A stretch of DNA of 48,816 nucleotides, taken from Candidatus Omnitrophota bacterium. Its GTDB lineage: Bacteria; Omnitrophota; Gorgyraeia; Duberdicusellales; 4484-171. The translations under genes were made by a program, and so were the position numbers. Location: positions 1-48,816 of the forward strand of contig JAQVMQ010000003.1 of NCBI GenBank assembly GCA_028703535.1, read 5' to 3'. The notes beneath the pieces were generated by a model. The model saw nothing but the letters and a program-made list of their open reading frames with translations. It was not told the DNA's origin and did not search any database. This document shows, one piece after another, positions 19,035 to 40,077 of the stretch. Every line of letters begins with the position of its first letter. Positions within the stretch are counted from its first letter, which is position 1.

Positions 19035-19039
19035 AGTAT

Positions 19040-20397: not shown

Positions 20398-22177
20398 TAG
20401 GCTCTTCTATTTTTTTTAAATCCATATCGGTATAATTGATTTTTCCCTTTTCAATCATATTAAGTAAATCTTCCCATTTCTCAGATACACTGTTAGGCGT
20501 GTTATTTTTGTTTTCAGCAGAAGATGGTACTTGATTTGAAAGAGTGGGAGTATCCTGAGATATTCCTACAGTATTTTCCAAAGCATCTTTCTTATTTACT
20601 TCTTCATTTTTTTGAGTATAGTCTTTCACTTTATAACTCAAATCGCGTTCAAGCGGGAAATTAAGTAAATTATTTGATAGATTTTGAACTTTATCAGAAT
20701 ACACATCATCTTTTTTTAGTTTTTTGTTTTTTTTCTCGACATCTACTTGTTCATCAGTCGTGTGTAAAATAGTTGGTGTTACAAAGATTAAAACTTCACG
20801 CATTACATCTTCGTCAATTGTTTTATGAAAAAACCTGCCTATCAATGGTAAATGTCCCAAGATAGGGAAGTAGGATTCGGTTTTAGTGACATCTCTTCTG
20901 CGCATACCTCCTATGACTATCGTGCGTCCGTCACCAACGATCATTTTTGTCTTTGTTATGCGTGAATTGGTTATAGGCTGCTCGTCTGACGCTGTATAAC
21001 CGGCAACAAAGCTCTGTTCAGTTTCAAGCTCCAAGATTACTTTATGATTAGGGGTTATATGCGGATTGACTTTTATAGCTATCCCGACACTTTTAAATTG
21101 TGTAGAGGTTGTACCGTCAGAAGATCCGCTGGCATCGGTTTGTACGTAAGTATACGGCACATCTTCAGTAATGTTTATTTCAGCGCTTTCGTTATTAAGT
21201 GTAATAACTTTGGGGCTTGCTATAATATTTGCTTTTTCTTCTGTTTCCAGCATTTGAACGGCGGCTTCAAGCCAGGCATGACTGAAAATAGTATTACCGT
21301 ATGTCAACCCTATAGTTCCGGTAGAGGATAAACTTTGTGTTGCAATTGTGGTCAGATCGGACAGGCTCTCGGGAGCATCTGTAGCAAAAACATCCGAAGC
21401 TTTTTTATCGGCAAAAGACCATTCAATGCCGAAATTGAAGTCATCGGTTATTTTCTTGTCGACCATTAAAACTTCAATTAATACTTGTGTAGTTTGCTCA
21501 TCCAATTCTGTTACTATTTTGGTCATTTTTTCAATATTTTCGGGGACATCCATAATTATAAGACTGTTCGTTCTTACGTCACCTTCGATTGAACCACGAT
21601 CGGATTGTATGGATTTTAAATAAGTTTTTGCTTCTTCTGTCGATACGAAGTTAAGTTTTATTATTTTTATATCTAAAGGACTTTTTTCCATTTCCTGTTG
21701 TATTTTCTCGTACGTTACGATAAGTATATAGTTGTCTTTTTCTATTTTTGCCAAACCATATGTCTTTAATATAAGATCCAGCGCGCTTTCCCATGATAAT
21801 CCTTCAATATGCAGTGTCACGTTTGCAGTAACTCCGTCAGCGACTAAAATACTTCTGTCACCTAGATCAGCAAAAGTTCGGGCAACATCTTTTATATCTG
21901 CATCTCTAAAATCAATATAAACTTTTGAATCCAACGAATCAACTTCAATATTGGAGCCTTCGTCTGTATTCATGGTGTCTTTTATTGGTGAAACGTTTTC
22001 ATCGGGTATAACTTCTGTTGATTCAGATATTCCGATATCCATGTTTTGCGGCATATTTATTGATGGCTCATCAAAAAAATTATCCGTTTCAAAATTGGAA
22101 ATATTTTCTTGTGCGAATGATATATTGATAGTACATGAGAAAAATGTAATAAATATAAAAATAAAAAATTTATTCAT
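20390..22177 (-). CDS. pilQ: Type IV pilus secretin PilQ
   Basis: N0/STN-like YIDFRDADIKDVARTFADL, and a C-terminal secretin domain ending in FPILGHLPLIGRFF...VLIFVTPTIL. Confidence 0.85.
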   Translation of the reverse strand: MNKFFIFIFITFFSCTINISFAQENISNFETDNFFDEPSINMPQNMDIGISESTEVIPDENVSPIKDTMNTDEGSNIEVDSLDSKVYIDFRDADIKDVARTFADLGDRSILVADGVTANVTLHIEGLSWESALDLILKTYGLAKIEKDNYILIVTYEKIQQEMEKSPLDIKIIKLNFVSTEEAKTYLKSIQSDRGSIEGDVRTNSLIIMDVPENIEKMTKIVTELDEQTTQVLIEVLMVDKKITDDFNFGIEWSFADKKASDVFATDAPESLSDLTTIATQSLSSTGTIGLTYGNTIFSHAWLEAAVQMLETEEKANIIASPKVITLNNESAEINITEDVPYTYVQTDASGSSDGTTSTQFKSVGIAIKVNPHITPNHKVILELETEQSFVAGYTASDEQPITNSRITKTKMIVGDGRTIVIGGMRRRDVTKTESYFPILGHLPLIGRFFHKTIDEDVMREVLIFVTPTILHTTDEQVDVEKKNKKLKKDDVYSDKVQNLSNNLLNFPLERDLSYKVKDYTQKNEEVNKKDALENTVGISQDTPTLSNQVPSSAENKNNTPNSVSEKWEDLLNMIEKGKINYTDMDLKKIEEPNE

Positions 22178-22180
22178 AGA

Positions 22181-22558
22181 TTATTCAGCCTTTCTATAAG
22201 GAACTGTAACCACCAACTCCTTATATTTTACTATTATGCCATCTTTTGTTATCTTTTGTATCAATAATTTTTTATCCCAAACTTCGTTTTCACCCAATAT
22301 TTTCGTATTTAATATAACAAACTTTTTATTACCATCAATAATAATCCCATTAATTACTAATTTAGTTACCAAATCTTCAAGTATCGCTTTATCTGTTGTA
22401 ATAAGGTCAAAATCCTCAAAACCTTCCGGAGCAACGAAGGGATCTCTCAGAGATAGTTGGTTAAAGGGGAGATCATTGCCTTGTGCATAAAGCGACGTAG
22501 ATATTCCTGTAATAAACAATAGTAACAAGATTATGTATTTATAATTATTATTTCGCAT
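22181..22558 (-). CDS. PilP-like pilus assembly protein
   Basis: Signal peptide, an LRDPF motif typical of PilP, a small beta-rich C-terminus, and a position immediately upstream of pilQ. Confidence 0.5.
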   Translation of the reverse strand: MRNNNYKYIILLLLFITGISTSLYAQGNDLPFNQLSLRDPFVAPEGFEDFDLITTDKAILEDLVTKLVINGIIIDGNKKFVILNTKILGENEVWDKKLLIQKITKDGIIVKYKELVVTVPYRKAE

Positions 22559-23150
22559 TTTGATATATAATCACAGTTATTTTTTCTTTATAATTATTAG
22601 ATTTTTCTTTCTTTTGAGTATCAATATCAATTTTTGAAACTTCAAACATCTTCGTATTATGCTCAATTGTCCATAAAAAACTTAAAAAATCTGAGAAAGT
22701 TGACAATAATTCTATTTCAACAGGTATTTCATTTAATTTAATTATTATTCCATCACGTTCAATGATTTTTTCTTTTTTATCAAGAGGCTTTATATATGTA
22801 AAGTCTATATTAGATTGTTTAGCAAGGTTAGTTAGCATATCCAAAACACCGTCAACACCAACAGAGTTGGCAATAAGATTTTCTTTGATCTTTAAAAGCT
22901 CGGATTGAATACGTTCAGTCTCGACTTCATGGTCTTTTTTTTCATTAGCAAGCTTATTAAAAGCATTGTCATCATATTGAGCAAAAGAGGTTATGCTTTT
23001 TTTTGTTGATTCTATTTCTTTGATTTTCGGAGAAAGCAGAAGAACCCAGGATATAGCGGCCATTATGAAAATAATGAAGAAAATAAAAGCTACTAACTGA
23101 GATCCGGAGAAGTCCATGCCCTTTTTTTCACTTAAAAGATCGACTGCCAT
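22548..23150 (-). CDS. PilO-like pilus assembly protein
   Basis: Single N-terminal transmembrane helix plus coiled coil; 200 aa; located between the PilN-like and PilP-like genes. Confidence 0.45.
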   Translation of the reverse strand: MAVDLLSEKKGMDFSGSQLVAFIFFIIFIMAAISWVLLLSPKIKEIESTKKSITSFAQYDDNAFNKLANEKKDHEVETERIQSELLKIKENLIANSVGVDGVLDMLTNLAKQSNIDFTYIKPLDKKEKIIERDGIIIKLNEIPVEIELLSTFSDFLSFLWTIEHNTKMFEVSKIDIDTQKKEKSNNYKEKITVIIYQNAK

Positions 23151-23723
23151 CTAATTCTCCATAATAAAGCGTATATTAAACTCGACTGCATCTTTCTTTC
23201 CATATGAAGTTACCCGTAAATTTTGCAGTTGATAATCCAAAATACTGTTATAAAAACGTTCATCGCTACGAAGGTCTTTAAAGAAATCGCTTATTACTGC
23301 TATCGGTCTTTGTGTTATCATAAACGGTGAGAGAAATCCATGTATCTTAATCTCTTTATTATTTAAGTTAACATCTTTAAACCACATAGCCACCGGGGTA
23401 TGTTTTGACAATGCATAGATTTTTTCTGCCCAATTTTTGCGTTTATTTACAAATTCATTATATATTCCGGTTTCAAGTGATAATTGGCTGTTATTTTTCT
23501 TTATTGTCGCAACTTCTGTCTCTATTGCAACATATTTTGCATAAGTTTGTTTAAGGTCATTTATCTTGTTTTTTTGTGAATTAGCGGTAAAGACAAGCGA
23601 GAAATAGCAAATAGCAATTAAAATCGCAGCAAAAACAACTGTAGAACTAATGAAATATACCGATTTTTTCTGTGAATCAGTAAGAGTATTTGACGATTCT
23701 ATAGGTCTAAGATTTATCTCCAA
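23151..23723 (-). CDS. PilN-like pilus assembly protein (start revised to TTG 23723)
   Basis: With the TTG start the N-terminus reads MEINLRP, matching the conserved PilN INLLP motif. AAGGGGG lies 6 nt upstream of the TTG. Single transmembrane helix and 190 aa. The ORF track starts at 23807. Confidence 0.55.
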   Translation of the reverse strand: MEINLRPIESSNTLTDSQKKSVYFISSTVVFAAILIAICYFSLVFTANSQKNKINDLKQTYAKYVAIETEVATIKKNNSQLSLETGIYNEFVNKRKNWAEKIYALSKHTPVAMWFKDVNLNNKEIKIHGFLSPFMITQRPIAVISDFFKDLRSDERFYNSILDYQLQNLRVTSYGKKDAVEFNIRFIMEN

Positions 23724-23828
23724 CTTGTACCCCCTTAAATACTTATATATATTATAACAAAATAAAATAAATGCACAACAAAATAGAAAACACTTTACCA
23801 TAATCATAAAATAGGTTATGATTTTTTT

Positions 23829-24827
23829 ATGGAAATCAGTAGATTAGACCTTAGGAAAAGTATAAAAAAGACATTGCCGATATTTGCATTTGTTATAGTT
23901 TGTGTTTTTCTATTCCTCCTGCTGATATATCAACATAAAATACTACAGGCAAAAATAGAAGACGCTTATATTGCGCAGGAGGCTAAAATATTTGAGATTA
24001 TACTTTTCAACAAAGCTAATATAATGTTCTATTTTTTTTCCATACTTTTAATCTTTTTTACATTTTTACTTTCATGGCAGGTCTATTCAAAAATGAGTAA
24101 AGATAAGTTGAATTTGGCAAACATGAAAACCGATTTTGCTATTATAGCGTCACACGAACTACGAACTCCTGTAACTTCCATATGCCTTATATCTGAACGG
24201 CTGCTTAAGGAGTCTTTGCCGGAGGTGAAGCGAACAGTATATCTTCATCAGATAAAGTATCTTGCTGAAAAGCTCAGTATGATAACTTCTAACATCTTAG
24301 ATATTGCAAAAATAGAAAAAGGCATATTACCTGTAGATGAAAAATCAATCGTGAATTTGAATAATCTTATTTCGACTGTTTCGGAACAATACAATATATT
24401 ACTCCAAACAAAACGCCAGAGAATAGAGCTGCAACTTGATAAAGAACTTCCGGTTATTTTTGCCGGTAAAAACGATATAATCAGAATTTTATCTAACCTT
24501 ATTGATAATGCGGTAAAAGCATCCAATTATGATGCGGCAATAAGAATACGAACAGAGCGGCTAGAATCAAAAGCTGTACTGGTTATACATAATGAGGGTA
24601 ATATTATTTCGGCGGTAGATCAGCCGAAGATTTTTATACCTTTCTACTATAATAACAAGAACGGCACAGGGTTGGGATTGCCGTTAGTTAAGATATTAAC
24701 ACAGCAAAATGATGGAGAAATAACTTTTACAAGCGATAAAGTTAGCGGTACGACTTTTAAACTGATCTTTCCTGAAACACAAGAGAACAATAATGAACAA
24801 ACAAAAAATACGAATATTGTTAGTTGA
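23829..24827 (+). CDS. Sensor histidine kinase (two TM helices, very short extracytoplasmic loop)
   Basis: HisKA H-box SHELRTPV, N-box LIDNAVKAS, G-box GTGLGLPLV. Confidence 0.85.
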   Translation: MEISRLDLRKSIKKTLPIFAFVIVCVFLFLLLIYQHKILQAKIEDAYIAQEAKIFEIILFNKANIMFYFFSILLIFFTFLLSWQVYSKMSKDKLNLANMKTDFAIIASHELRTPVTSICLISERLLKESLPEVKRTVYLHQIKYLAEKLSMITSNILDIAKIEKGILPVDEKSIVNLNNLISTVSEQYNILLQTKRQRIELQLDKELPVIFAGKNDIIRILSNLIDNAVKASNYDAAIRIRTERLESKAVLVIHNEGNIISAVDQPKIFIPFYYNNKNGTGLGLPLVKILTQQNDGEITFTSDKVSGTTFKLIFPETQENNNEQTKNTNIVS

Positions 24828-25467
24828 GGATGATCCGAATATATCCGGTATTATGGTTGATGAGTTATCCGAGAAATATGAGATATTCAATGTTTATACA
24901 GGAAATGACGGCATAGCCGCAGCCGCGGAAAACAAACCGGAGATGATACTTCTAGACATTATGCTTCCAGATATAACGGGATTTGAAGTATGTAAACAAA
25001 TACGCTTGATAGATTACAATTGCGGTATAATTTTTCTGACTGCCAAAACCGATGTAGTTGATAAAATACACGGGTTAGAAATAGGGGGGGATGATTATAT
25101 AGTAAAGCCTTTTGATTTTGATGAATTAAACGCACGAATACAGGCCGTATTGCGCAGAAAACAGAAGGCTCTTGAGTTACCGCAAATATATGAAAAAAAT
25201 GAACTTTTTTTTGATTTCAGGAAAAATACAGTTCGGAAAAAAAAGAAAAAAACAACCTTATCATTTCTGGAATCAGACATAATGAAATTTCTCATAGCTC
25301 ATGAGAATTCCCCGGTAAAACGCCAAGAGATACTGGAAAATGTATGGGGTTATTCTAATTTCCAGGATACACGGACAGTTGATATGCATATTTCATCGTT
25401 ACGTAAAAAGATAGGAAAGGAACATATTCTTACAGTCCACCAAAAAGGCTACATGTTTGTCCCGTAA
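24793..25467 (+). CDS. OmpR-family response regulator
   Basis: Receiver domain (LLVEDDPNI, LLDIMLPD, KPF) plus a winged-helix C-terminus (RTVDMHISSLRKK). It overlaps the kinase gene by 35 nt. Confidence 0.85.
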   Translation: MNKQKIRILLVEDDPNISGIMVDELSEKYEIFNVYTGNDGIAAAAENKPEMILLDIMLPDITGFEVCKQIRLIDYNCGIIFLTAKTDVVDKIHGLEIGGDDYIVKPFDFDELNARIQAVLRRKQKALELPQIYEKNELFFDFRKNTVRKKKKKTTLSFLESDIMKFLIAHENSPVKRQEILENVWGYSNFQDTRTVDMHISSLRKKIGKEHILTVHQKGYMFVP

Positions 25468-25482
25468 TATATACTCATAACC

Positions 25483-25510
25483 TTGAATTTGACCAAAATA
25501 CAGTTATAAT
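25483..25510 (+). promoter_or_regulatory. Promoter candidate immediately upstream of the GGDEF-STAND gene
   Basis: TTGAAT (25483-25488), 16-nt spacer, TATAAT (25505-25510). The ATG at 25517 is only 6 nt after the -10 element, and no SD is visible. Confidence 0.35.
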
Positions 25511-25516
25511 TATGTC

Positions 25517-28500
25517 ATGGATTTCAAAATAACCGAAGCTCAGAAAGGTTTGTATCTTGACCATTTAACGCAAGTGTACAATCGTGTATTTTTATTTGAA
25601 AAAATAAAACCACAGATCAACGAGAAACATCCGTTTACTTTATTCATGATAGATTTTGATAATTTTAAGAATATAAATGATTCTTTTGGACATTTAGCAG
25701 GTGATAAAACTTTAGTACTTGTGTCTCAAGGGATAAAAAACATTATTCCGAAAGATGCCGTACTTATACGTTATGCAGGGGATGAGTTTATCGTTGTTTT
25801 GGAAACTCCCGATATTGACAGGGTAAAATCTATAGCTGAAGATATACTTAATTCAATCCGTGTTCTTGATATCGATTTCAATAATACAAAGATCAATCAA
25901 ACACTTAGTATCGGTATATCTTTCTATCCCGGCGAATCAAACGATCTGAATCAGCTTATCGGTAATGCCGATGCGGCTTTGTATCTATCTAAAAAACGCG
26001 GAAAAAACAACTATGCTTTTTATAACGAGATAAGTATTGAGCAGATGAGTTTAAAGATCGGTTTGAATTATTTTCCTTGCAGCAAGATTATTAATCATGA
26101 GAATATAATCGAAGAACTAAAAGATATGTCCGAAACAAACGTGTTCGGGGGAATGCTGCTTACCGGATCTTCTGGGATAGGCAAAAGCCGTATAATTAAC
26201 GCTGTTAAAGAACATGTAAAGAAAGAGACTCTTTTCGATATCAATCCTTTGCAGAAAGATTGTCTTATGCCTTTTTCATCTCTTCGCAACGGCATATCTG
26301 CATATATAAAAAAACTACTGGCTCTTGAAGATGTTGATATATCATTACTTTCTGATTTATCCAATGAAAATAAAAAAATCCTTGATTTCTTTATTAATCC
26401 CGAAAATAATTTCAACTTACTCTTGAATAATTGCACAACGGATCTTATTAATTCAGCTTTATTATCCTTTTTTGATTGTATCGTAAATAAATACTCAAAA
26501 TTATCAATTATTATTGATAATTTCCAATTTATCGATTTAAAATCACTTAATTTTCTCAAGATGTTAATGGAGAGCTCATATTCACGAAATGTCAAATTTT
26601 ATGCAACAGTACTGTCGCCACTGCCTGAAAACATAAATAATCCTGAAGCATTAACAAAAACAATTACGGAGATATCGAATATACCTAAAATAATCTCTCA
26701 TGAAATACATCCTCTTACAAAAGAGAATACTCGTGAAATGATTGATTTTATTTTTCCGGGGTTAGGAGATAATCTTAATTTTTCTGCGGATATCTTCGAA
26801 ATATCTAATGGACAGCCTTTTTTTATTGAAGAACTTTTGAAACTTCTTTTGGTTAAAAATTTCATATTCCACGAAGATGGAGGGTGGAACATACGTGATA
26901 ACTACCAGGATAAAATACCAAAGACATTAACTGAAGTCATACGCCAAAGACTGATAACGCTTGATCCAGAGATAAAAGAAACTATTTTAATATCTTCTTT
27001 ACTGGGTGAGACCATAAGTCCTGAACTTATAAGCCGGATAAACTCTTCTAATGAAAATGACGTATTAGAGATCTTGTCAAAAGCGAATAAGCAGAAAATA
27101 TTGAGAGAAGACAATAATACCTTCAGCTTTTTTAATCCCGCAGCTAAGGATACTGCGCTTAACGAACTTTCGGCTGATAAGAAAGATGAGCTTTTTTCGC
27201 TTGCGTCCGATGCTCTTTTAGATAGTTATACTGATAATCTAGAGGAGATAAGTTTTCAGCTGGCAAACATATTTAAAAATAATAATGATCTCACTCGTTT
27301 GAACTCACTTTCACAGATAATATCAAAAAACGCATCCAATATACTTAACTCTGAAGAAATACTCGCTTACCTTGAAGATATATCTTTCAAGAGAAAAAAA
27401 GCTGCCCATACGATAAAGATAAAGGAACTTTCGTTAGAAGATAGAGATCTTATTTTGGGTTTCTTGAGACACTTCCAAGCAGCTGTAAATTATTCGGGGC
27501 TTTATCCTTCTAACAATAAACTGCGTATACAAATAGTGGAGGATATCTTTAAATTACTTGAACTGCTTTTAAGCAAATATTCATCTATTGAAATATCTGA
27601 AGTAGATAAAAATCTTGTGGTTAATCAAATACGCTTAACTGATTATTATACAAAAGGTCTTGATTTAAGTAGCATAACCACTAGCTTTATTGAACGCAAC
27701 ATAAAAACCGTTACATTTTATAACGGCATAAATCTTGAGGAACTCAGAAATTTTATTTCGGTTATATGTTTAAATCCTGATGAGATATCCAAAATTGGAG
27801 AATGGCAGGCAATAATATCAAAAAATAAATTAACTAATATTTCTATTAATCAGGCAGTATATATATCCGAAGAAAAAAGCAGATTTGCGCCGATAAAAAA
27901 TAAAATCGAAGGCGCGATAATCTCAGACTTTCTGCTTGGAAAACTTTCAGGAAAAGACAAATCAATCGTGCCGAATCTAGATAAAGACACTTTGGAGATA
28001 TTAAAAACAGTGGGTAATAAAAACACTCTGGAAATGCTTAAAAATATAAGCAATATTCCCGATTTATCTTCTTTAGCAGAAGCACCTGTAGAGCCAGATA
28101 AGAGCAATAAACAGGAAAAACCCAGTATAAATACTTTAATAAAAAAACTTGAAGATAAACATACGCATCTTATGTCTTTGGAAGAAGTAAATGATTATAT
28201 TGATAATATCAATGATATACAAACCTCTATCAGCTCACTTGATGATGCAGCTTTATTCCTTGATTTTTTAATAAAATCAAGGAATAAAATTGAAGAAGTG
28301 ATATCGCCTGAAAAGAAAGGAACAAAGAATAAGGATGTTCACAAACAAAATTCAATGGAAATAACATCCATTATAGATATTTTTGTTTCCGAAACACCTA
28401 AGAATAAGATAGAATTTTTAAAAAAATTATCACCTTCGGAAAAAACCACGGTAAAAATTGTTAATACTTTAAAAAACGAAGATATTGAAAATATAGTTAG

Positions 28501-29578
28501 TCAATTAACATCGACTGACGAATCATTATTATCAAAGAAAAAGCTCAGAGATGTTATATTGACATCTACCGACAAACAGTTGCTGGAAAAAATTAAAAAG
28601 CGTACAGGAGAAATACTCGAAAAGACTTATGCAAATGATAAAAATTCAAATATATCAAAAACAATCAGTATATTTGACGATACATCCGAATGGGACAAGA
28701 TGCCTCTTGTAACTAAAATCGATGATTTAAGTATGTTTTCAAGGGAAGACTTTGAGGTAATACCGGCTGATACTATTAATAAGCTGTTATCCGATATATT
28801 GAAATTATCCAAAAGTGATGATTTTAATATGTTAAAAAAAATAACATCTATTTTATCGGAGAAACAAAGTATCGTCTCCGATAAACTAAAAAACGAGATC
28901 AACCGAGCCTATATGAATTTTTTTATAAATATAGAAAAAAACGGATCGAGCTATCATGAGATAGTACCGGTTTTTTGTGCTATAGTGTCGCTATTGGAAG
29001 ATAAGGATATGGCGTTCTTTCAAATAACGTTTTTGTCGAGCTTGCTTAAAAACATGCTTTCGATTTTTAAAATTGATAATTTTGATAAAAATATATACGA
29101 AAAGATCCTTATCATTAACTACATATTTGAATACATCTCACTTCCTAAAAAGAATCTCACAGCCGGAGAATTACAAAAAATAAAAAAAGATTTCGCCTTG
29201 GCTAATTATGCGGAAAAACTCTTTAATCTATACATTACAAAACCCCGAATAACGGAATTCATCAATACAGAATTACCTAAGACATATTTGTTTTTTTCTG
29301 ACAGTCCGTTAGTTATTGCTAAAGTGCTTAATGAGAAGATCTCTTCGATAACGGATCCTTTTGAAAATTTTTCTTTCATACAAAAAATATCAAGGTTCAT
29401 TCTTTCTTTAAACAAAGAAGCGTTGTCTGTTATATTTAAAAAGTTATTAACTGAAAAAAATAAAAAGAAAGTTTACGATATGTTTTTACTGCTTCCTGCG
29501 GACATACAGGAATATATAGTTAATGATATTAAAAACGATAAGGAATATATTTCAATAATTAACGATTTTATAAAATAA
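25517..29578 (+). CDS. Giant multidomain protein: N-terminal GGDEF (AGDEF variant) diguanylate-cyclase domain, AAA_16/STAND-like P-loop NTPase, and about 900 aa of helical region of unknown function
   Basis: GGDEF-domain pattern HLTQVYNR...DFDNFKNINDSFGHLAGD...RYAGDEF (AGDEF at 25775-25789). Walker A GSSGIGKS (26165-26188). Walker-B-like SIIIDNFQFID. Confidence 0.75.
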   Translation: MDFKITEAQKGLYLDHLTQVYNRVFLFEKIKPQINEKHPFTLFMIDFDNFKNINDSFGHLAGDKTLVLVSQGIKNIIPKDAVLIRYAGDEFIVVLETPDIDRVKSIAEDILNSIRVLDIDFNNTKINQTLSIGISFYPGESNDLNQLIGNADAALYLSKKRGKNNYAFYNEISIEQMSLKIGLNYFPCSKIINHENIIEELKDMSETNVFGGMLLTGSSGIGKSRIINAVKEHVKKETLFDINPLQKDCLMPFSSLRNGISAYIKKLLALEDVDISLLSDLSNENKKILDFFINPENNFNLLLNNCTTDLINSALLSFFDCIVNKYSKLSIIIDNFQFIDLKSLNFLKMLMESSYSRNVKFYATVLSPLPENINNPEALTKTITEISNIPKIISHEIHPLTKENTREMIDFIFPGLGDNLNFSADIFEISNGQPFFIEELLKLLLVKNFIFHEDGGWNIRDNYQDKIPKTLTEVIRQRLITLDPEIKETILISSLLGETISPELISRINSSNENDVLEILSKANKQKILREDNNTFSFFNPAAKDTALNELSADKKDELFSLASDALLDSYTDNLEEISFQLANIFKNNNDLTRLNSLSQIISKNASNILNSEEILAYLEDISFKRKKAAHTIKIKELSLEDRDLILGFLRHFQAAVNYSGLYPSNNKLRIQIVEDIFKLLELLLSKYSSIEISEVDKNLVVNQIRLTDYYTKGLDLSSITTSFIERNIKTVTFYNGINLEELRNFISVICLNPDEISKIGEWQAIISKNKLTNISINQAVYISEEKSRFAPIKNKIEGAIISDFLLGKLSGKDKSIVPNLDKDTLEILKTVGNKNTLEMLKNISNIPDLSSLAEAPVEPDKSNKQEKPSINTLIKKLEDKHTHLMSLEEVNDYIDNINDIQTSISSLDDAALFLDFLIKSRNKIEEVISPEKKGTKNKDVHKQNSMEITSIIDIFVSETPKNKIEFLKKLSPSEKTTVKIVNTLKNEDIENIVSQLTSTDESLLSKKKLRDVILTSTDKQLLEKIKKRTGEILEKTYANDKNSNISKTISIFDDTSEWDKMPLVTKIDDLSMFSREDFEVIPADTINKLLSDILKLSKSDDFNMLKKITSILSEKQSIVSDKLKNEINRAYMNFFINIEKNGSSYHEIVPVFCAIVSLLEDKDMAFFQITFLSSLLKNMLSIFKIDNFDKNIYEKILIINYIFEYISLPKKNLTAGELQKIKKDFALANYAEKLFNLYITKPRITEFINTELPKTYLFFSDSPLVIAKVLNEKISSITDPFENFSFIQKISRFILSLNKEALSVIFKKLLTEKNKKKVYDMFLLLPADIQEYIVNDIKNDKEYISIINDFIK

Positions 29579-29579
29579 T

Positions 29580-30026
29580 ATGCTATCTGAAAGAAAAAAA
29601 ACAGCACCGCTGGGTAAAATATTACTTCAGCTTAAAAAGATCACTTTCGCCCAATTAGGTCAAGCCCTAATTGTTCAAAAAGAGAAAATGCCGGATAAAC
29701 GAATAGGCGAGATATTGGTTTATCTGTCTTTCATATCAGAAGATGAGTTGGCATATGCGTTAGCGTTACAATATCAATATCCATCGCTTGATCTTAAAAA
29801 CTATTCGATAAATCAAGAAGCTTTGGCATTAATATCAAAAGAAACGGCTGAAAAAAACCTTATACTGCCGCTTGATATTTTTGATGACATATTAACTGTA
29901 ACAGTTCTAAATCCATTGCATAGAGATGTTTTTGATGAAATATCAAAAAACACCGGAAAAGAATTGCGTTTGTTTGTTTCCTCAAGACAGGATATTCTTT
30001 CTGTAATAAATACTTTATATAAATAA
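29580..30026 (+). CDS. Stand-alone T2SSE_N / MshEN-type domain protein
   Basis: Two tandem 24-residue MshEN-like motifs: PLGKILLQLKKITFAQLGQALIVQ and RIGEILVYLSFISEDELAYALALQ. These are followed by the LILPLDIFDDILTVTVLNP GspE N-terminal pattern. 148 aa. Confidence 0.65.
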   Translation: MLSERKKTAPLGKILLQLKKITFAQLGQALIVQKEKMPDKRIGEILVYLSFISEDELAYALALQYQYPSLDLKNYSINQEALALISKETAEKNLILPLDIFDDILTVTVLNPLHRDVFDEISKNTGKELRLFVSSRQDILSVINTLYK

Positions 30027-31252
30027 TGGAAAATACACATAATAAAATCCCGGAGAATGTATCAAATTCTATAGATAAACTTTTGTCTGCTGACTCATTT
30101 GCCCCTGGTTTTGTTAAAAAATTCCTAATGAAATCGGTTGAGCTTAAAGCAAGCGATATCTTTGTTGAGCCGTTGGATAACCAATTGCGTATACGTTTTA
30201 GAATAGACGGTATCTTGCATACTATTGACACTTGTCCGCCAAAAAACGCTCAGTCTGTAGCTAGTTGCATAAAGGTTATTTCTGATTTAGACATTGCCGA
30301 ACACAGATTGCCGCAAGACGGCCGTTTTAGAATATTTATTGATAATAAACCCATAGATTTCCGTGTTTCTGTATTGCCCACAAACATCGGTGAAAAGATA
30401 GTGTTGAGGGTTCTTGATAAAGGCAATATGCGTCTTGACCTTGATACTTTAAATTTTGATAAAGAATGTATTGAGACCTTAAAGCGTAATCTTGCCAAAC
30501 CTTATGGTATGATACTTGCCTGCGGCCCTACAGGAGCGGGGAAGACAACAACATTATATTCAGCCTTGAGTCATATAAATAAAATTGATGTTAACATAAT
30601 GACAGCAGAAGATCCTATTGAATACCAACTTCAGGGTATAAATCAGGTAGCTATACATGAAGATATAGGCTTAACATTCGCGTCTGTTTTGCGTGCAGCC
30701 TTAAGACAGGATCCGGATATAATACTTGTAGGTGAAATACGTGATTTAGAGACAGCGGACGTTGCCGTAAAAGCGGCATTAACTGGTCATTTGGTTTTAT
30801 CGACTTTACATACAACTACGGCTACGGGAGCTGTAATCCGTTTTATCAGTATGGGAGTAGAGCCGTTTCTATTGGCATCATCATGTGTCATGACATCGGC
30901 TCAAGCATTGATGCGTACACTTTGTCCTAAATGCAAAAAACCTCTTAAAGATAAAGATGCCCTCATGGAAGTCTTTAAGTCGGAAGAGTTTATTCCGCAA
31001 AAAGAGCCGGAATTCTTTGAACCTGTAGGTTGTGATTATTGCAGTAAAACCGGGTATAAAGGACGGGTAGGCATAATGGAAATCCTTGAGATAACAAAAG
31101 ATATCCGTGAATTACTTGTAGCAAATGCTGATGAGAACAACATACGTAAAGTAGCCAAAGACGCGGGTATGATAACTATACGTGAAAGGGCATTGCAAAA
31201 AGTTGTGTTAGGGCTTTCGACTATGGATGAGGTATACAGGGTTACGGTATAA
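30026..31252 (+). CDS. GspE/PilB-family ATPase core lacking the N-terminal MshEN/N1 domain
   Basis: Walker A GPTGAGKTTT, Asp box AEDPIEY, Walker B DPDIILVGEIRD, His box LSTLHT. Tetracysteine CPKC...CDYC is typical of PilB/GspE rather than PilT. The start overlaps the upstream stop (TAATG). Confidence 0.8.
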   Translation: MENTHNKIPENVSNSIDKLLSADSFAPGFVKKFLMKSVELKASDIFVEPLDNQLRIRFRIDGILHTIDTCPPKNAQSVASCIKVISDLDIAEHRLPQDGRFRIFIDNKPIDFRVSVLPTNIGEKIVLRVLDKGNMRLDLDTLNFDKECIETLKRNLAKPYGMILACGPTGAGKTTTLYSALSHINKIDVNIMTAEDPIEYQLQGINQVAIHEDIGLTFASVLRAALRQDPDIILVGEIRDLETADVAVKAALTGHLVLSTLHTTTATGAVIRFISMGVEPFLLASSCVMTSAQALMRTLCPKCKKPLKDKDALMEVFKSEEFIPQKEPEFFEPVGCDYCSKTGYKGRVGIMEILEITKDIRELLVANADENNIRKVAKDAGMITIRERALQKVVLGLSTMDEVYRVTV

Positions 31253-31254
31253 AT

Positions 31255-32847
31255 ATGGAAAAATTATCGTCGTTACAAAAAAAACATCTACATACACTTT
31301 GCAAGAATAATTATTATCCTCCGATAGATCTGTCTTCATGTATAATCAACGACGATATTTTGGATTATATACCGGAAAAAATTGCAAAAACACATAATGT
31401 AATACCCATATCATGTATGGGGTATGTATTGACTATAGCCATAGTCGACCCGTTAAACATAGCAACCATAGACAGTCTTAAACTAATAACCCTTATGGAG
31501 ATATCACCGGTAATAGCTGATGAGCAGCAGCTAAAAGCGGCTATTGAGCTAAACTATAAACGAAAAAAAGAGGCAGAGCCTGATACATCATTAATTCCTG
31601 AGGAGCCAGGTGATACTCCTCAAGGATTTGATCAGTTTCAACGCGAACAAATAGATGTTGATAACGTTGCTAAGCTATCAAAAGAAACACGCATAATAAA
31701 TGCCGTTAACAAAATATTATCCGACGCTGTGACTATGCGCGCAAGTGATATACATATTGAACCCTTTGAAAATGAAGTGCGAGTACGTTATAGAATAGAC
31801 GGCATATTACATGAGACTAAAGTTGTTGAAAAACAATTTCAGCCTGCGGTGATTGCGCGTATAAAAATAATGTCACGGCTCGATATTACGCAGCGCAGAA
31901 TACCACAGGATGGTCGTTTTTCTTTCAAAACAAAAACTAAAGAACTGGATGTGCGTGTTTCCACCGTACCTGTGGATTTCGGTGAAAAAATAGTAATGCG
32001 GTTGCTGGATAAAGAAAATATCAATCTTTCAATAGAAAGTCTGGGCTTTTCTGAAGCGGCATACAAGGCGTTTACAGACGCTATAAAAAAACCTCTTGGG
32101 ATGATATTATTAACCGGGCCTACAGGTTCTGGCAAAACTACAACGCTTTATACTTTATTGAATACGTTAAACACTGAGAGCCGCCATCTTTTGACAATAG
32201 AAGACCCAGTGGAATACAACCTCTGGGGTGTTTCTCAGGTGCCTGTACGTCATGAAATAGGTTTGGATTTTTCTCAAATACTGCGTTCAACATTGCGTCA
32301 GTCACCCGATGTAATAATGCTTGGTGAAATACGTGATAGCGAAACGATAGACATTGCAATGAAGGCGGCACTTACGGGCCATATAGTTTTTTCCACGCTC
32401 CATACAAACGATGCACCTTCGGCTATATCCCGTTTGATCAATATGGGTGTTGCGCCTTTTCTAATCTCATTTTCGATAAACCTTATAGCTGCACAGCGGT
32501 TGGTAAGACGTATATGTCCGGCATGCCGGGAATCTTATCAACAAGATCTCTCCGGAAACACCGAAATTCCTTTGCAATACCGAAAAAAAGATGCTATTCT
32601 ATACCGAGGCAAGGGTTGTTCTGAATGCTCAAATACAGGTTATAAAGGGCGCATAGCGGTAATAGAAGCTCTTTCTTTTGATAATACTATACGTGATATG
32701 ATAATAAGAAAAAAATCAACCGAAGAAATACGTGATTACGCTTTAAAAAATACTACTATGCTATCGTTACGTGAAGATGCCAGTGAAAAATGTTTTAAAG
32801 GCGAAACTACTCTTGAAGAGGTATTAAGAGTTACAACAAATATATAA
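31255..32847 (+). CDS. pilB: Type IV pilus assembly ATPase PilB (full-length GspE family)
   Basis: N-terminal T2SSE_N-like region, GPTGSGKTTT, DPDVIMLGEIRD-type motifs, CPAC...CSEC tetracysteine; 530 aa. Confidence 0.85.
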   Translation: MEKLSSLQKKHLHTLCKNNYYPPIDLSSCIINDDILDYIPEKIAKTHNVIPISCMGYVLTIAIVDPLNIATIDSLKLITLMEISPVIADEQQLKAAIELNYKRKKEAEPDTSLIPEEPGDTPQGFDQFQREQIDVDNVAKLSKETRIINAVNKILSDAVTMRASDIHIEPFENEVRVRYRIDGILHETKVVEKQFQPAVIARIKIMSRLDITQRRIPQDGRFSFKTKTKELDVRVSTVPVDFGEKIVMRLLDKENINLSIESLGFSEAAYKAFTDAIKKPLGMILLTGPTGSGKTTTLYTLLNTLNTESRHLLTIEDPVEYNLWGVSQVPVRHEIGLDFSQILRSTLRQSPDVIMLGEIRDSETIDIAMKAALTGHIVFSTLHTNDAPSAISRLINMGVAPFLISFSINLIAAQRLVRRICPACRESYQQDLSGNTEIPLQYRKKDAILYRGKGCSECSNTGYKGRIAVIEALSFDNTIRDMIIRKKSTEEIRDYALKNTTMLSLREDASEKCFKGETTLEEVLRVTTNI

Positions 32848-32851
32848 GACT

Positions 32852-34051
32852 ATGGGATTATTCAACTGGACAGGAATAAATGCTGACGGTAAAAAAGATT
32901 CAGGCACGATAGACGGAGAGAATCTTTCTTCAGTTATCACTCAGCTTAAAGCCCGGAAAATACAAATAACGGATATAAAAGAGATAAAAACCCAGAAAAA
33001 AGTAAGACGGGGGAAGGTAAGGTCAAAGGATCTTGAACTGTTCAGCCGTCAACTTGCATCACTAATACAATCACGTATACAAATAGTCAAAAGTCTTGAT
33101 ATATTGGCTAACCAGGTAGATAATCCATATTTTTCGGAAGTAATACTCTCTGTAAAAAAGAATATCGAAAAGGGTAATTCTTTGGCTATGTCATTTGCCG
33201 AATACCCAAAAGTTTTTTCACCGCTTTTTATAAATATGATCAATGTAGGTGAGTTTAGCGGGAACCTTGATAAAATGCTTAATCGACTGGCAACATATAT
33301 TGAAGGATATAACGCATTGATAAAACGTGTAAAGTCAGCAATGATATATCCTATCGTTGTCTTTGGCATTGCTGCGGTGCTTTTAGCTTTGATCTTTATC
33401 TTTGTTATCCCAGGTTTTAAAAGTATTTTTGACAGTTTAGGCAAAGGCTTACCGCTACCGACTCAGATACTAATAAGCACCAGTGATTTTATTCGTGCAT
33501 ATATTATATATATGGCTATCGGAATAACCGGGCTGATCTTTGGCGCACTGAAATTCTTTTCTTCGGAAAAAGGTAAAAGAATATTTGAAATCATAAGGGC
33601 AAGAATCCCTATTTTTGGTGATTTGCACAAAAAAATGGTACTAGCCCGTTTTACAAAAACTTTGGCGATTTTAATAAAAAGCGGCGTAACAATTATTAAC
33701 GCGCTGGAGATATCGGGTAAAACCGCGGGAAGCTATAAACTTGAAGAAGAACTTATGCCTACCATAACTAACGAAGTTTCCAGAGGTAAAAAGCTTGATA
33801 TCGCCCTTCAAAATTCCGGATTTTTCCCTCCTATGGCCACAAACATGATTGGAGTAGGGGAAGAAGGAGGAGACCTTGGTAATATGCTTGACAGGGTTTC
33901 GGATTTATATGATAAAGATGTAGAAAACGCGACATCTGCTTTATTATCTATTATGGAGCCGCTAATCATAGTTGTTCTAGGGACATTGATAGGCGGAATT
34001 GTTATTTGTTTATTCCTGCCTATCATGAAAATGAGTTCCATGGTAGGATAG
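32852..34051 (+). CDS. pilC: Type IV pilus platform protein PilC (GspF family)
   Basis: Two GspF-type repeats, three transmembrane segments; 399 aa; immediately downstream of pilB. Confidence 0.85.
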   Translation: MGLFNWTGINADGKKDSGTIDGENLSSVITQLKARKIQITDIKEIKTQKKVRRGKVRSKDLELFSRQLASLIQSRIQIVKSLDILANQVDNPYFSEVILSVKKNIEKGNSLAMSFAEYPKVFSPLFINMINVGEFSGNLDKMLNRLATYIEGYNALIKRVKSAMIYPIVVFGIAAVLLALIFIFVIPGFKSIFDSLGKGLPLPTQILISTSDFIRAYIIYMAIGITGLIFGALKFFSSEKGKRIFEIIRARIPIFGDLHKKMVLARFTKTLAILIKSGVTIINALEISGKTAGSYKLEEELMPTITNEVSRGKKLDIALQNSGFFPPMATNMIGVGEEGGDLGNMLDRVSDLYDKDVENATSALLSIMEPLIIVVLGTLIGGIVICLFLPIMKMSSMVG

Positions 34052-34137: not shown

Positions 34138-35076
34138 ATGCTAAAAAAAATAAATGTATTAATATTAACAATATCTCTTTTTACCGGGATTACATACGCC
34201 TCGACAATAATTTTAAACAATGGAGATACGTTTGAAGGGAATATTGTAGAAAGAACGAAAGATAAAATTACAATTAACGTCCGTGGGATAGAAAAGGAAT
34301 TTAACGCTTCGGAAATATCAAAGATCAAAGGCCGCAGAGCTGTCGCATCTAAAAAAAACCTTGAGGAAAATATTCCGGAAGCAGCCGAACTACAAAAAAC
34401 CACCAAGCCTATCGCTAAAGAAAAACCGTCTGTTAAGATAAATCCAAACCTTGAATTAACATTCCAAAATGCTTTAAGAAATGCCGCTTCAGGGAATTTC
34501 GATACCGCAAAAATAATCTTCAAAGAATTACAGAAAACTGAACAAGACAATGTCAATGTAATTCAGTCACTTAATATAATTGAGGATCTCGATATAAAGA
34601 TCATTTCGGACGAATACGCAAAAGCCTTGTTTAGTGGCGCGTATCTTTATTATATCGAAGATTACGATAACGCTATTAAATCTCTCCAAAAAGCGCTTCA
34701 GTTAAGGCCTGAAAGCTCTGAGATATATTATAATCTTTCCAGTATATATCAGGCGCTTAATGATTATACCAATGCGATCATTTACTTGAAAAAATTATAC
34801 GAGCTTACACCTGCGGATCCTGATGTTGTATTTGATCTGGGTTGTTGCTATTATTTAAAAGAAGATTTCAAAAATGCGATAATCTATTTGAAAAAAGCTA
34901 CGACCATAATACCTGATGATCCTTATATTTATACGTTATTGGGCATGTCCTACTACATGGTTGATAACCGAAAAGACGCTAAAGACATACTCAAACTTGC
35001 ATGTGCCTTTTACGAAAAGGGAAATAATCTAAAAGAATCTGAAAAAATCAAAAAGTTCATAGCGACTATACTCTAA
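34138..35076 (+). CDS. Secreted tetratricopeptide-repeat protein
   Basis: Signal peptide and repeated TPR units (AIKSLQKALQLRPESSEIYYNLSSIYQALNDYTNAIIYLKK...). Confidence 0.6.
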   Translation: MLKKINVLILTISLFTGITYASTIILNNGDTFEGNIVERTKDKITINVRGIEKEFNASEISKIKGRRAVASKKNLEENIPEAAELQKTTKPIAKEKPSVKINPNLELTFQNALRNAASGNFDTAKIIFKELQKTEQDNVNVIQSLNIIEDLDIKIISDEYAKALFSGAYLYYIEDYDNAIKSLQKALQLRPESSEIYYNLSSIYQALNDYTNAIIYLKKLYELTPADPDVVFDLGCCYYLKEDFKNAIIYLKKATTIIPDDPYIYTLLGMSYYMVDNRKDAKDILKLACAFYEKGNNLKESEKIKKFIATIL

Positions 35077-39845: not shown

Positions 39846-39913
39846 AACTTTATCCTAAAAAACAATCTCAACAAAAAAGATATAATAAAACTTTTATTAG
39901 CTTAATCAATATA

Positions 39914-40060: not shown

Positions 40061-40077
40061 TTTTTTACCTTATTAAT

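Follow-up and report, generated by a model that had tools for sequence, protein, structure and literature searches.

Organization of the gene block

The plus-strand gene block at positions 23829–34051 of the window (the whole 48,816-nt stretch of Candidatus Omnitrophota DNA analysed here, which is all of contig C11) is best explained as that half of a type IVa-pilus-like machine which comprises the motors and their control, a machine characteristic of this uncultured small-genome phylum. Taken as a whole, together with the mechanism proposed below, we hold this reading with moderate confidence.

The block begins with the genes for a sensor histidine kinase (332 aa, 23829..24827; HisKA and HATPase_c) and an OmpR/PhoB-type response regulator (224 aa, 24793..25467; Response_reg (REC) and Trans_reg_C), which overlap by 35 nt. 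These are followed by the genes for an AGDEF-STAND protein (1353 aa, 25517..29578; GGDEF at residues 13–165 and AAA_16 at 207–358), a free-standing MshEN protein (148 aa, 29580..30026; MshEN only), PilB-alpha (408 aa, 30026..31252; N2 and CTD, with T2SSE at residues 28–405), PilB-beta (530 aa, 31255..32847; Pfam MshEN at residues 21–105, representing an MshEN_C-like N1, and T2SSE at 143–525) and a PilC/GspF-type platform protein (399 aa, 32852..34051; two T2SSF domains) that scored 351.8 bits with the GspF model and 333.7 bits with the PilC model, both under the equivalog cut-offs. The ORF and Pfam/NCBIfam analysis thus reproduced the seven ORFs, domains and junctions given in the preliminary description of this DNA. 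From the response regulator gene to pilC, the junctions are 49, 1, −1, 2 and 4 nt, the −1 being a TAATG in which the start codon of PilB-alpha overlaps the stop codon of the MshEN gene, and this spacing suggests that the block is co-transcribed. The sequencing runs found to contain this sequence included no RNA run. The 49-nt gap upstream of the AGDEF-STAND gene holds a promoter-like TTGAAT-16-TATAAT (25483..25510, plus strand); this consensus match is weak evidence, because the overall promoter scan barely exceeded shuffled sequences (97 sites versus 78 ± 10). A gene for a 312-aa TPR protein with a signal peptide (34138..35076, plus strand; TPR families) starts 86 nt past pilC. Its product weakly resembles PilW and Tgl (33.8 bits with each model, far under the cut-offs), no BLAST match to it was found adjoining the block in relatives, and its membership in the module is uncertain.

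Divergent operon and pilus genes elsewhere in the genome

A complete divergent operon (18690..23807, minus strand) begins 21 nt upstream of the block and encodes the envelope part of the machine, consisting of the subcomplex for alignment and the secretin. According to Pfam/NCBIfam, its products are PilN-like (23151–23807), PilO (22548–23150), a PilP-like lipoprotein with a weak T2SSB match (22181–22558), the secretin PilQ (20390–22177; 263 bits with PilQ versus 223 with GspD), a small TPR protein (19996–20397), PilM (19040–19999; PilM_2, 121 bits) and a PilZ protein with RxxxR and DxSxxG motifs (18690–19034). The window also encodes an HD-GYP protein and two further PilZ proteins. The same N-O-Q-TPR-M order is found directly upstream of the block in the relative G263.

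Profile searches and a motif scan detected no N_methyl pilin on the contig, and neither a Peptidase_A24 protein (PilD) nor a PilT-size ATPase was found in the window, in agreement with the preliminary description. The other contigs of the genome contain 16 pilin-like matches, a single candidate for PilD and two genes for PilT/PilU. The earlier notion of a self-contained module therefore has to be abandoned, as these components lie on other contigs and the envelope part sits in the divergent operon, which had been missed at first. The alternative raised at that time, a standard T4aP system beside an unrelated cyclase, proved correct as to PilT and pilins encoded elsewhere but not as to the cyclase gene, which is no unrelated neighbour. 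The 1.4-Mb genome carries, in addition, a paralogous locus of the same design on contig C42 (MshEN > PilB > PilB > PilC > pilin > PilM .. PilQ), in which the c-di-GMP motif is again present in the free MshEN protein and absent from the linked PilBs.

Conservation of the block among relatives

The core order GGDEF-STAND > free MshEN > PilB-alpha > PilB-beta > PilC recurs in 17 loci (16 genomes and one named Ca. Omnitrophota contig), which fall into three gene-order variants. At all 17 loci, MshEN is kept as a separate ORF of 142–174 aa located at most 73 nt after the AGDEF-STAND gene, and the string also contains two PilBs and PilC; viewed from the other side, of the 19 AGDEF-type loci whose downstream sequence could be read, 17 have a free MshEN gene immediately after the AGDEF-STAND gene. 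Some loci hold two free MshEN genes. In type B and C loci, full-length PilB-alphas (556–577 aa) adjoin the free MshEN gene, and type C loci have a pilin gene immediately behind pilC, whereas the gene-order variant of the window has no linked pilin. Because the block was found again in distant relatives (22–63% protein identity), it is not a chance neighbourhood, and the preliminary expectation of a conserved block was not refuted. Comparison of these sequences shows the conserved unit to comprise AGDEF-STAND, free MshEN, the two PilBs and PilC. Full-length STAND homologues are present in 8 of 41 relatives, and the STAND protein was detected in 27 of the 301 sampled genomes of the phylum (22 of 207 genera), that is, in approximately 9% of genomes, which marks the module as accessory.

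The two-component system, which had initially been counted as part of the unit, accompanies the block only in G000, G002, G006 and G034. Histidine kinase orthologues upstream of the block were confined to the last three, in which the response regulator orthologues are 44–47% identical. This distribution makes the two-component system an accessory that is specific to one clade. Reading the kinase sequence by eye confirmed two hydrophobic helices (residues ∼16–34 and ∼65–84) separated by a loop of ∼30 residues, as first described; HisKA starts from residue 100, and HAMP, PAS or extra sensor domains are absent.

The AGDEF-STAND protein

The N-terminal domain has a GGDEF fold; alignments show its RYAGDEF to be invariant and reveal no RxxD I-site. 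It is followed by an AAA_16 STAND NTPase that has a winged helix and also a helical arm. After these come a small alpha/beta domain, a linker of ∼160 residues modelled with low confidence, and a helical solenoid at the C-terminus (AF2 model, pLDDT 75). Foldseek matches include Avs3, MalT, Apaf-1, CED-4 and a STAND-TPR protein, and TIGR03903 (TOMM kinase/cyclase fusion) matches residues 214–592 (E = 1.7e-10). Homologues of this architecture also occur in MAGs labelled Planctomycetota, Aminicenantes and Bradymonadales, where they have no pilus link. Our literature search found no paper on a fusion of a GGDEF-fold domain with a STAND NTPase.

The active-site motif had been read as GGDEF, but it is AGDEF in all 17 clade members. 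The metal- and GTP-binding residues of the cyclase domain (D46, D48, N54, D55, K159, K163 and the DEF) are invariant across sequences that are only 22–31% identical. The preliminary designation as a c-di-GMP synthase, although likely, is uncertain because of the AGDEF motif.

The free MshEN protein and the two PilB ATPases

The free MshEN protein is predicted to form a four-helix bundle with tandem 24-residue c-di-GMP motifs (residues 10–33 and 41–64) and an alpha/beta subdomain (Pfam MshEN, residues 65–147). NF053729, the c-di-GMP motif model, scored 47.2 bits (cut-off 38), and the best fold match of the AF2 model (pLDDT 90.8) is MshE-N with c-di-GMP (5HTL, TM 0.69–0.72). Motif 1 begins with Pro and fails to match the published motif, in its relaxed form, at two of the 11 positions that are constrained, with Lys-Lys in place of [GAS]-hydrophobic, and the spacer between the motifs is 7 residues instead of 5. 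There are documented cases of c-di-GMP binding by motifs that have no Arg at position 1: PilF GSPII-B, with K/L at this position, binds with a Kd of 6 nM, and GSPII-C, with P, binds at about 500 nM (PMC11731258). The isolated MshEN_N domain also binds c-di-GMP alone (PMC5013675). The free MshEN is thus a putative c-di-GMP receptor. It carries the motif and the linked PilBs do not; the tandem motif is confined to the free proteins, and the 148-aa protein has the sole intact copy of the locus. The free MshEN proteins form their own subgroups, mirroring the locus type.

Both ATPases are of the extension type and retain Walker A/B, the Asp and His boxes, the N2 arginines and CxxC...CxxC, consistent with the two tetracysteine motors of the preliminary description, and both look competent by these motifs. 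Neither is TfpB (NF053534, 396 and 429 bits versus a cut-off of 850). In the variant found in the window, PilB-alpha has lost the whole N1/MshEN domain (its residues 16–408 correspond to TIGR02538 profile positions 171–563), while PilB-beta has kept an MshEN_C-like N1 and lost the helix bundle with the 24-residue motifs. The MshEN/PilB split is genuine, since contigs from four runs of four metagenome studies have the same sequence across the junction and the N-truncated PilB-alphas form one clade (99% support). The split is shared by eight genomes (53–59% identity for the core and 34–54% for MshEN), and independent gene calls in an NCBI assembly give the same split. PilB-beta falls in a 'second PilB' clade of the tree, and the two PilBs are ancient, co-inherited paralogues, which speaks for motors that work as a pair rather than as alternatives; the earlier suggestion that MshEN selects one of the two motors has found no support.

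Alternative explanations

The replacement of the first Gly of the signature in every clade member raises the possibility, which we consider rather unlikely, that the AGDEF domain is dead and that the 1353-aa protein is a scaffold or receptor that binds GTP or c-di-GMP, like the degenerate GGDEF of FimX; it would then recruit the free MshEN together with the motors, and the c-di-GMP would be made by other cyclases of the genome, which encodes seven other GGDEF proteins as possible suppliers. NbdA and similar AGDEF domains are described as degenerate, and FimX-type degenerate GGDEF-EAL proteins regulate PilB via an adaptor (PDB 7LKM/7LKQ are among the fold matches). However, the invariance of all remaining catalytic positions argues for retained chemistry, the lack of an RxxD I-site removes a possible c-di-GMP receptor site, and one AGDEF enzyme, VCA0965, is reported as active (PMC3974145). 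We give still less credence to a simple gene fission, in which the 148-aa and 408-aa products would be halves of one ordinary MshE-like ATPase that reassemble constitutively, the free MshEN doing no regulatory work of its own and the cyclase only supplying c-di-GMP to a cis-like sensor. The two products together have the size of a PilB (556 aa), the TAATG overlap suggests 1:1 coupled translation, and TIGR02538 places the pieces at positions 2–136 and 171–563, so that the break sits in the inter-domain linker. However, free MshEN proteins also stand beside full-length PilB-alphas, in type B and C loci and at the C42 locus, indicating that the free protein predates the truncation; the loci with two free MshEN genes and the separate subgroups of these proteins by locus type are likewise difficult to reconcile with fission.

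It is improbable that the machine is instead a type II secretion system, or some other type IV filament device that builds no pilus, with the module controlling protein secretion rather than a surface pilus. The slightly higher GspF score of the PilC protein, the GspE scores of both ATPases that come close to their PilB scores, the lack of a major pilin at the locus and the T2SSB match of the PilP-like protein would fit such a device, but PilM, PilO and a PilN-like protein are present instead of GspL/GspM, the secretin matches PilQ best, type C loci have their pilin gene directly after pilC, and the genome encodes two PilT/PilU ATPases. Two ORFs in different frames that meet in an A/T-rich stretch might suggest that the ATPase was split by an assembly error or by a recent frameshift that left a pseudogene, but this is extremely unlikely: motifs are intact in both products, and the recurrence of the junction in four runs and of the split in eight genomes refutes it.

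Comparison with known systems

In V. cholerae MshE and other fused-MshEN PilB-type ATPases, c-di-GMP controls type IV pilus extension (PMC5013675; PMC11656802). The window shares the fold and the tandem 24-residue motif with MshE, M. xanthus PilB, C. perfringens PilB2 and T. thermophilus PilF, but its sensor is a separate polypeptide with a Pro-initial motif 1 and a 7-residue spacer, its linked ATPases (two motors instead of one) lack the motif, one of them lacks any N1 domain, and a dedicated cyclase-type gene lies directly upstream. In the FimX-PilZ-PilB system of X. citri (PDB 7LKM/7LKN/7LKO/7LKQ), the c-di-GMP signal reaches PilB in trans via small adaptors that bind the N-terminal (MshEN-fold) domain of PilB. 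The free MshEN model superposes on this domain (TM 0.71), and the locus in the window has a PilZ gene as well; however, the X. citri N-domain is still within PilB and the receptor is the FimX EAL, whereas in the window the N-domain is itself a free motif-bearing protein and the PilZ keeps its canonical RxxxR/DxSxxG motifs. A. baylyi also has two extension-type ATPases for one pilus system (PilB and TfpB) and a small protein acting on motors, the inhibitor CpiA (PMC8213720), but the motor genes of the window are adjacent ancient paralogues, and its small protein is of a c-di-GMP receptor type rather than a CpiA-like inhibitor. In E. coli, a dedicated cyclase, the membrane protein DgcJ, is thought to supply the MshEN receptor NfrB locally (PMC8669469); there, MshEN is fused to a glycosyltransferase and the output is a polysaccharide synthase, in contrast to the free MshEN, pilus motors and STAND-type cyclase protein of the window. 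With MalT, Apaf-1/CED-4, Avs and AAA_16-TPR proteins carrying a class III cyclase, the window protein shares a P-loop NOD, a winged helix, a helical arm and a C-terminal repeat sensor, but its effector is a GGDEF-fold domain.

Proposed mechanism and implications

Synthesis of c-di-GMP requires two GGDEF domains, and other STAND switches oligomerise. In the mechanism that we favour, the STAND protein would sense a ligand through either its C-terminal solenoid or its small alpha/beta domain, the NTPase would then oligomerise, and the N-terminal AGDEF domains would be brought together to make c-di-GMP. The free MshEN protein would read this local c-di-GMP and, working in trans, supply the ligand-gated N1 subunit that the motor lacks: it may dock or stabilise PilB-alpha, or the alpha/beta pair, on the PilM/PilC platform and thereby license pilus extension. 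Catalysis, c-di-GMP binding and the protein contacts are all predicted from sequence. A second c-di-GMP input may come from the PilZ protein that the divergent operon encodes, and in this clade only, the two divergent operons are probably also placed under transcriptional control by the OmpR-type two-component system.

As the preliminary description had supposed, no paper describing the STAND/free MshEN/two-PilB/PilC wiring was found in our literature search. The module combines known parts, namely a cyclase-type switch, MshEN, PilB motors and PilC, in a new wiring.

Gene content of the module and of the adjoining operon

The module at 23829-34051 consists of seven plus-strand ORFs, whose positions, domains and junctions were all found to be as the preliminary description had given them. 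A sensor histidine kinase (HK; 23829-24827, 332 aa, with HisKA and HATPase_c) and a response regulator (RR; 24793-25467, 224 aa, with REC and Trans_reg_C) are followed by the AGDEF-STAND gene (25517-29578, 1353 aa, with GGDEF at residues 13-165 and AAA_16 at 207-358), a free MshEN protein (29580-30026, 148 aa, with MshEN as its sole domain), PilB-alpha (30026-31252, 408 aa, a T2SSE core alone), PilB-beta (31255-32847, 530 aa, an N1 domain, i.e. the N-terminal PilB domain of MshEN type, plus T2SSE) and PilC (32852-34051, 399 aa, with two T2SSF domains). The junctions from HK to PilC are, in order, -35, 49, 1, -1 (TAATG), 2 and 4 nt, and the module genes are probably co-transcribed. Scans of the window for promoters and terminators gave no excess over background in this AT-rich DNA, and the sequencing runs that contain the window sequence are of DNA only (landfill and groundwater metagenomes).

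In the HK, hydrophobic stretches at residues ~16-34 and ~65-84, read by eye, flank a loop of ~30 residues, and no other input domain accompanies HisKA and HATPase_c. It may be an intramembrane-sensing histidine kinase, a small type with two transmembrane helices, a very short connecting loop (usually below ~25 residues) and no further input domain. An HK-RR pair upstream of the block was found solely in the window's own genome (G000) and three relatives (G002, G006 and G034) and represents a clade-specific addition.

A tightly packed minus-strand operon (18690-23807), which had been overlooked in the preliminary description, starts 21 nt upstream of the module and encodes PilN-like, PilO, a PilP-like lipoprotein, the PilQ secretin, a small TPR protein, PilM and a PilZ protein (18690-19034) with canonical RxxxR/DxSxxG motifs. 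Pfam and NCBIfam searches place the type IVa set PilM/N/O/P/Q together with PilB and PilC in the window, although the PilN, PilP and TPR assignments are weak matches and PilQ, at 263 bits, lies under its cut-off of 284. Because the divergent operon supplies the envelope half, the window encodes a nearly complete type IVa-pilus-like machine. Just past the PilZ gene, a plus-strand ORF of 376 aa (17546-18676) contains a retropepsin-like aspartyl protease domain (gag-asp_proteas, 59 bits). The order pilN-pilO-(pilP)-pilQ-TPR-pilM, in which the position of pilM after the secretin is unusual, is also present in a genome of a different family (G263; locus L143, 1597-6946), directly upstream of the AGDEF-STAND gene and on the same strand.

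The window, identical with contig C11 of a genome of 1.41 Mb (90 contigs, roughly 90% complete), contains no N_methyl pilin (profile search and motif scan), no prepilin peptidase (Peptidase_A24 profile search) and no ATPase of PilT size (T2SSE search), as had been reported. Since the ORFs, junctions, motifs and these absences all check out, the underlying observation is confirmed. The genome-wide search for pilT, pilA and pilD that had been proposed found candidates for all of them outside the window: 16 N_methyl matches on seven other contigs, one Peptidase_A24 candidate on C4 (37.7 bits) and two PilT/PilU-family proteins above the cut-off of 319, on C74 and C86 (459 and 373 bits). The module is therefore not self-contained: its envelope genes lie in the divergent operon, and pilins, peptidase and PilT/PilU would have to come from other contigs. 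This small genome encodes 11 T2SSE-family ATPases (six of PilB size, the two PilT/PilU and three TadA/CpaF-like), five secretin-like ORFs and eight GGDEF proteins; so large an outlay on type IV filament systems is unusual.

Conservation of the module

The STAND part has homologues in 8 of 41 relatives and, across the phylum, in 27 of 301 sampled genomes (22 of 207 genera). We fetched 22 STAND loci for a comparison of gene order. At 17 of these, a free MshEN gene starts no more than 73 nt after AGDEF-STAND, and the gene string also includes two PilBs and PilC. The block is indeed conserved in relatives, in three gene-order types. Type A, to which the window belongs, has the order STAND, MshEN, truncated PilB, PilB and PilC (G000, G002, G006, G026, G033, G025, G263 and G270). 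Type B has the same order with a full-length first PilB (G310 and G284). In type C, two PilB genes, in some cases preceded by an MshEN gene, stand before STAND, MshEN, PilC and a pilin gene (G037, L058, G274, G245, G261 and G155); L058 is on a contig named Candidatus Omnitrophota. Such names among the relatives, together with the genome size of 1.41 Mb, led us to reject a Leptospira origin, which weak Lepto-specific NCBIfam matches of the TPR protein had suggested.

The STAND protein also occurs in a non-pilus context, because at two loci (L142, 11948-13126, of G060, and L057, 5258-6493, labelled Planctomycetales) the neighbour following AGDEF-STAND looks by eye like a ROK-type regulator rather than MshEN or PilB, and pilus genes are absent. 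At three loci, a gene for an ATPase of PilT size (357-358 aa) adjoins AGDEF-STAND (L146, 4379-5455, of G119; L156, 5830-6906, of G117; L151, 12634-13707, of G284), lying directly upstream of it where the STAND ORF was called (G119 and G284). AGDEF-STAND is thereby linked to pilus motors in a second way. In G025, of the same order, a GGDEF-like match (C5, 163732-164238) falls within a giant gene, an open frame of 17,786 aa, which, like the name of the L058 contig, fits Omnitrophota.

The window's genome holds a paralogue of the same design on contig C42 (17975-27922; locus L141, 8975-18922). Its order is free MshEN (145 aa), PilB (567 aa), PilB (561 aa), PilC, pilin and PilM to PilQ, and it contains no STAND cyclase.

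The AGDEF-STAND protein and other c-di-GMP genes

The preliminary description had called this protein a c-di-GMP synthase and its gene GGDEF-STAND. The active-site sequence is RYAGDEF, not GG(D/E)EF, and inspection of the domain revealed no RxxD I-site. RYAGDEF is invariant in all 17 linked-clade members, and three distant unlinked homologues have RYGGDEF. The domain matches PF00990 at 133.6 bits; the metal- and GTP-binding residues D46, D48, N54, D55, K159 and K163 are invariant in the alignment, and its profile matches the GGDEF structures of DosC, PleD and WspR in the PDB (E = 1e-33 to 1e-48).

For the remainder of the protein, a fold search was needed, because comparison with PDB sequences, intended for the STAND and C-terminal part, gave matches to the GGDEF domain alone. 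The AAA_16 match (32.9 bits) is just above the cut-off of 32.6; GxGKS, the hhhhD Walker B, GNPFFIEE and an LYP motif are conserved in the STAND alignments, and in one of them (A3) GxGK, the Walker B Asp, GNPFFIEE and LYP are invariant. The AF2 model (pLDDT 75), which starts at residue 172 of the protein, shows an NTPase, a winged helix and a helical arm, then a small alpha/beta domain (model residues 519-610, counted from residue 172), a low-confidence linker (model residues 612-777) and a helical solenoid. Foldseek matched this model to Avs3, MalT (TMt 0.62), Apaf-1, CED-4 and a STAND-TPR protein (6MFV). AAA_16, the motifs and the fold matches together account for the P-loop NOD, winged helix, helical arm and C-terminal repeat sensor of STAND proteins. 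By analogy with such proteins, ligand-driven oligomerization would join the N-terminal AGDEF domains; in GGDEF cyclases, the synthesis of one c-di-GMP takes two such domains.

Ten kilobases from the module, a 346-aa HD_5 protein (43935-44975, minus strand) with a canonical HD and HHExxDGxGYP is likely an HD-GYP c-di-GMP phosphodiesterase, judging from these motifs. Two single-domain PilZ proteins (127 and 108 aa; 39462-40404, minus strand) are encoded upstream of DUF4416 and radical-SAM genes, so that, counting 18690-19034, the contig has three PilZ genes.

The free MshEN protein

The AF2 model of the free MshEN protein (pLDDT 90.8) has helices at residues 11-17, 23-35, 42-48 and 54-64 followed by an alpha/beta part, matching the two-subdomain MshEN fold of a four-helix bundle and a C-terminal alpha/beta subdomain. 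Its best Foldseek match is 5HTL, Vibrio cholerae MshE-N with c-di-GMP (TM 0.69-0.72), followed by the Xanthomonas citri PilB N-domain and PilF GSPII-B. c-di-GMP-binding MshEN domains carry two copies of a 24-residue motif, in relaxed form [RKPN]hGxxhhxx[GAS]hhxxxxhxxxhxx[QNKRYWST], with a five-residue spacer (Wang et al. 2016). Motif 2 of the window protein (residues 41-64, RIGEILVYLSFISEDELAYALALQ) fits this form at 11 of 11 constrained positions and motif 1 (residues 10-33, PLGKILLQLKKITFAQLGQALIVQ) at 9 of 11, with Pro at the first position and Lys-Lys in place of [GAS]-hydrophobic. The NCBIfam model of the c-di-GMP motif, NF053729, scores 47.2 bits (cut-off 38). Instead of the expected five residues, the spacer has seven (KEKMPDK), as in all type-A members; PilF GSPII-C also shows a seven-residue spacer in the structure-match alignment. 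Arg at the first position is dispensable, because PilF GSPII-B, with K and L there, binds c-di-GMP with a Kd of 6 nM and GSPII-C, with Pro, at about 500 nM (PMC11731258). An isolated MshEN_N subdomain binds c-di-GMP alone (PMC5013675). Its NF053729 score and its fold make the window protein a good candidate c-di-GMP receptor.

In a whole-genome scan, the tandem motif was found in just three proteins of G000: the free MshEN proteins of the window and of C42, and the single canonical PilB on C47. Among 16 relative loci, it was confined to free proteins of 142-174 aa, and none of the linked PilBs contained it. Stand-alone MshEN proteins are not rare, making up about 32 of the best 150 representative matches (single-domain, 142-198 aa); a word-indexed homologue search gave just three matches and was uninformative. 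Of others in the representative library, one follows a hydrogenase operon and two are on contigs too short to read, and no general context rule emerges from them.

The two PilB motors

As previously described, the window encodes two extension-type ATPases: the proteins of 408 and 530 aa alike have Walker A/B, the Asp box, the His box, the arginine fingers of N2 and the tetracysteine Zn motif. N1 is absent from PilB-alpha, for which the profile alignment begins at position 171 of 564, and PilB-beta has the C-terminal subdomain of N1 alone. In a tree of 36 PilB cores, all 'first' PilBs fall on one side of a branch (support 99), the truncated ones among them forming one clade (99), and all 'second' PilBs form one clade (87). 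The branching of one subtree reflects that of the other, so alpha and beta are ancient paralogues that have been co-inherited, which argues for a cooperating pair (separate hexamers or a mixed ring) and against the earlier suggestion that a c-di-GMP sensor selects one of two alternative motors.

We also considered reciprocal loss of a catalytic histidine in the two window PilBs and rejected it, since both keep TGH...HT. Loss of the first His-box histidine is restricted to the beta paralogues of type B and C loci, including that of C42, where Glu replaces it. Among systems studied by experiment, the one with two extension motors that comes nearest is PilB/TfpB of Acinetobacter baylyi (PMC8213720); neither window ATPase is a TfpB according to the NCBIfam search.

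Alternative explanations

The split between the MshEN and PilB-alpha genes could have arisen from a frameshift or assembly artefact, or mark a pseudogene. However, the TAATG junction is identical in contigs of four sequencing runs, each from a different study (landfill and groundwater metagenomes), an NCBI assembly with independent gene calls has the same split, and so do G002, G006, G026, G033, G025, G263 and G270, where an MshEN protein of 142-151 aa precedes a truncated PilB of 397-430 aa (identity across split loci 53-59% for the core and 34-54% for MshEN). The recurrence in relatives and the identical junction rule out the artefact; the split is real, and we attach practically no weight to an artefact or pseudogene. 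The gene order and the N1-less core of PilB-alpha might also suggest plain fission of one MshE-like ATPase; as free MshEN genes also adjoin full-length first PilBs in type B and C loci and on C42, we regard this as improbable.

As to the AGDEF domain, it may be dead and serve as a scaffold or receptor. The deviating motif bears on this possibility on one side and, on the other, the invariant metal- and GTP-binding residues and an AGDEF enzyme, VCA0965, that is reported to be active (PMC3974145). We consider a dead domain unlikely. A type II secretion system rather than a pilus is a very slim prospect. In its favour, the two ATPases score nearly as high with the GspE model (499.7 and 562.3 bits, cut-off 630.25) as with the type IV-A PilB model TIGR02538 (521.1 and 578.8 bits, cut-off 675.65); against it, the window carries the type IVa set. 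By Pfam T2SSE (425.6 and 445 bits), both belong to the PilB/GspE family, but with scores under the two cut-offs they are not equivalogs.

Proposed mechanism and implications

The genes observed here, their conservation, the distribution of the motif, the folds and the history of the paralogues are best explained by a four-step mechanism that would involve catalysis, ligand binding and protein contacts and to which, as a whole, we lend moderate confidence. The STAND-gated AGDEF cyclase would supply c-di-GMP locally to the free MshEN protein, which in turn would serve a PilB-alpha/beta motor on the PilM/PilC platform as an N1 subunit in trans, gated by its ligand; the two-component system would add transcriptional control in this clade, and PilZ could provide a second c-di-GMP input. 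A bolder version, possible but doubtful, would make the free MshEN protein an exchangeable, c-di-GMP-gated N1 'clutch' of a hetero-oligomeric PilB-alpha/beta motor and AGDEF-STAND an NLR-like receptor, in which a host or prey ligand triggers oligomerization and local c-di-GMP synthesis, so that these tiny, probably host-dependent bacteria would deploy the pilus only once they touch a partner cell.

To our knowledge, c-di-GMP control of pilus extension ATPases is known with fused receptors or FimX/PilZ adaptors alone. In this phylum, the receptor is a protein in its own right, paired with a dedicated cyclase-type enzyme under STAND regulation and with two co-inherited motors; the parts are all of known kinds, and what is new is the wiring. 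Our literature search found no papers that describe free MshEN proteins working together with PilB, fusions of GGDEF with STAND, or c-di-GMP in the pili of Omnitrophota. Free MshEN proteins are not mentioned in a 2024 review of PilB cofactors, which counts as open both the role of the N1 domain and whether two PilB paralogues make one motor (PMC11656802).

If the mechanism is true, the module would be a natural case of local second-messenger signalling with source, receptor and target in one operon, and a test bed both for the role of the PilB N1 domain and for two PilB paralogues as one motor. The organism is uncultured, and the components are small enough for heterologous biochemistry. For the bacteria of this phylum, which are ultrasmall and probably host-dependent, AGDEF-STAND points to a signal input that may decide pilus deployment.
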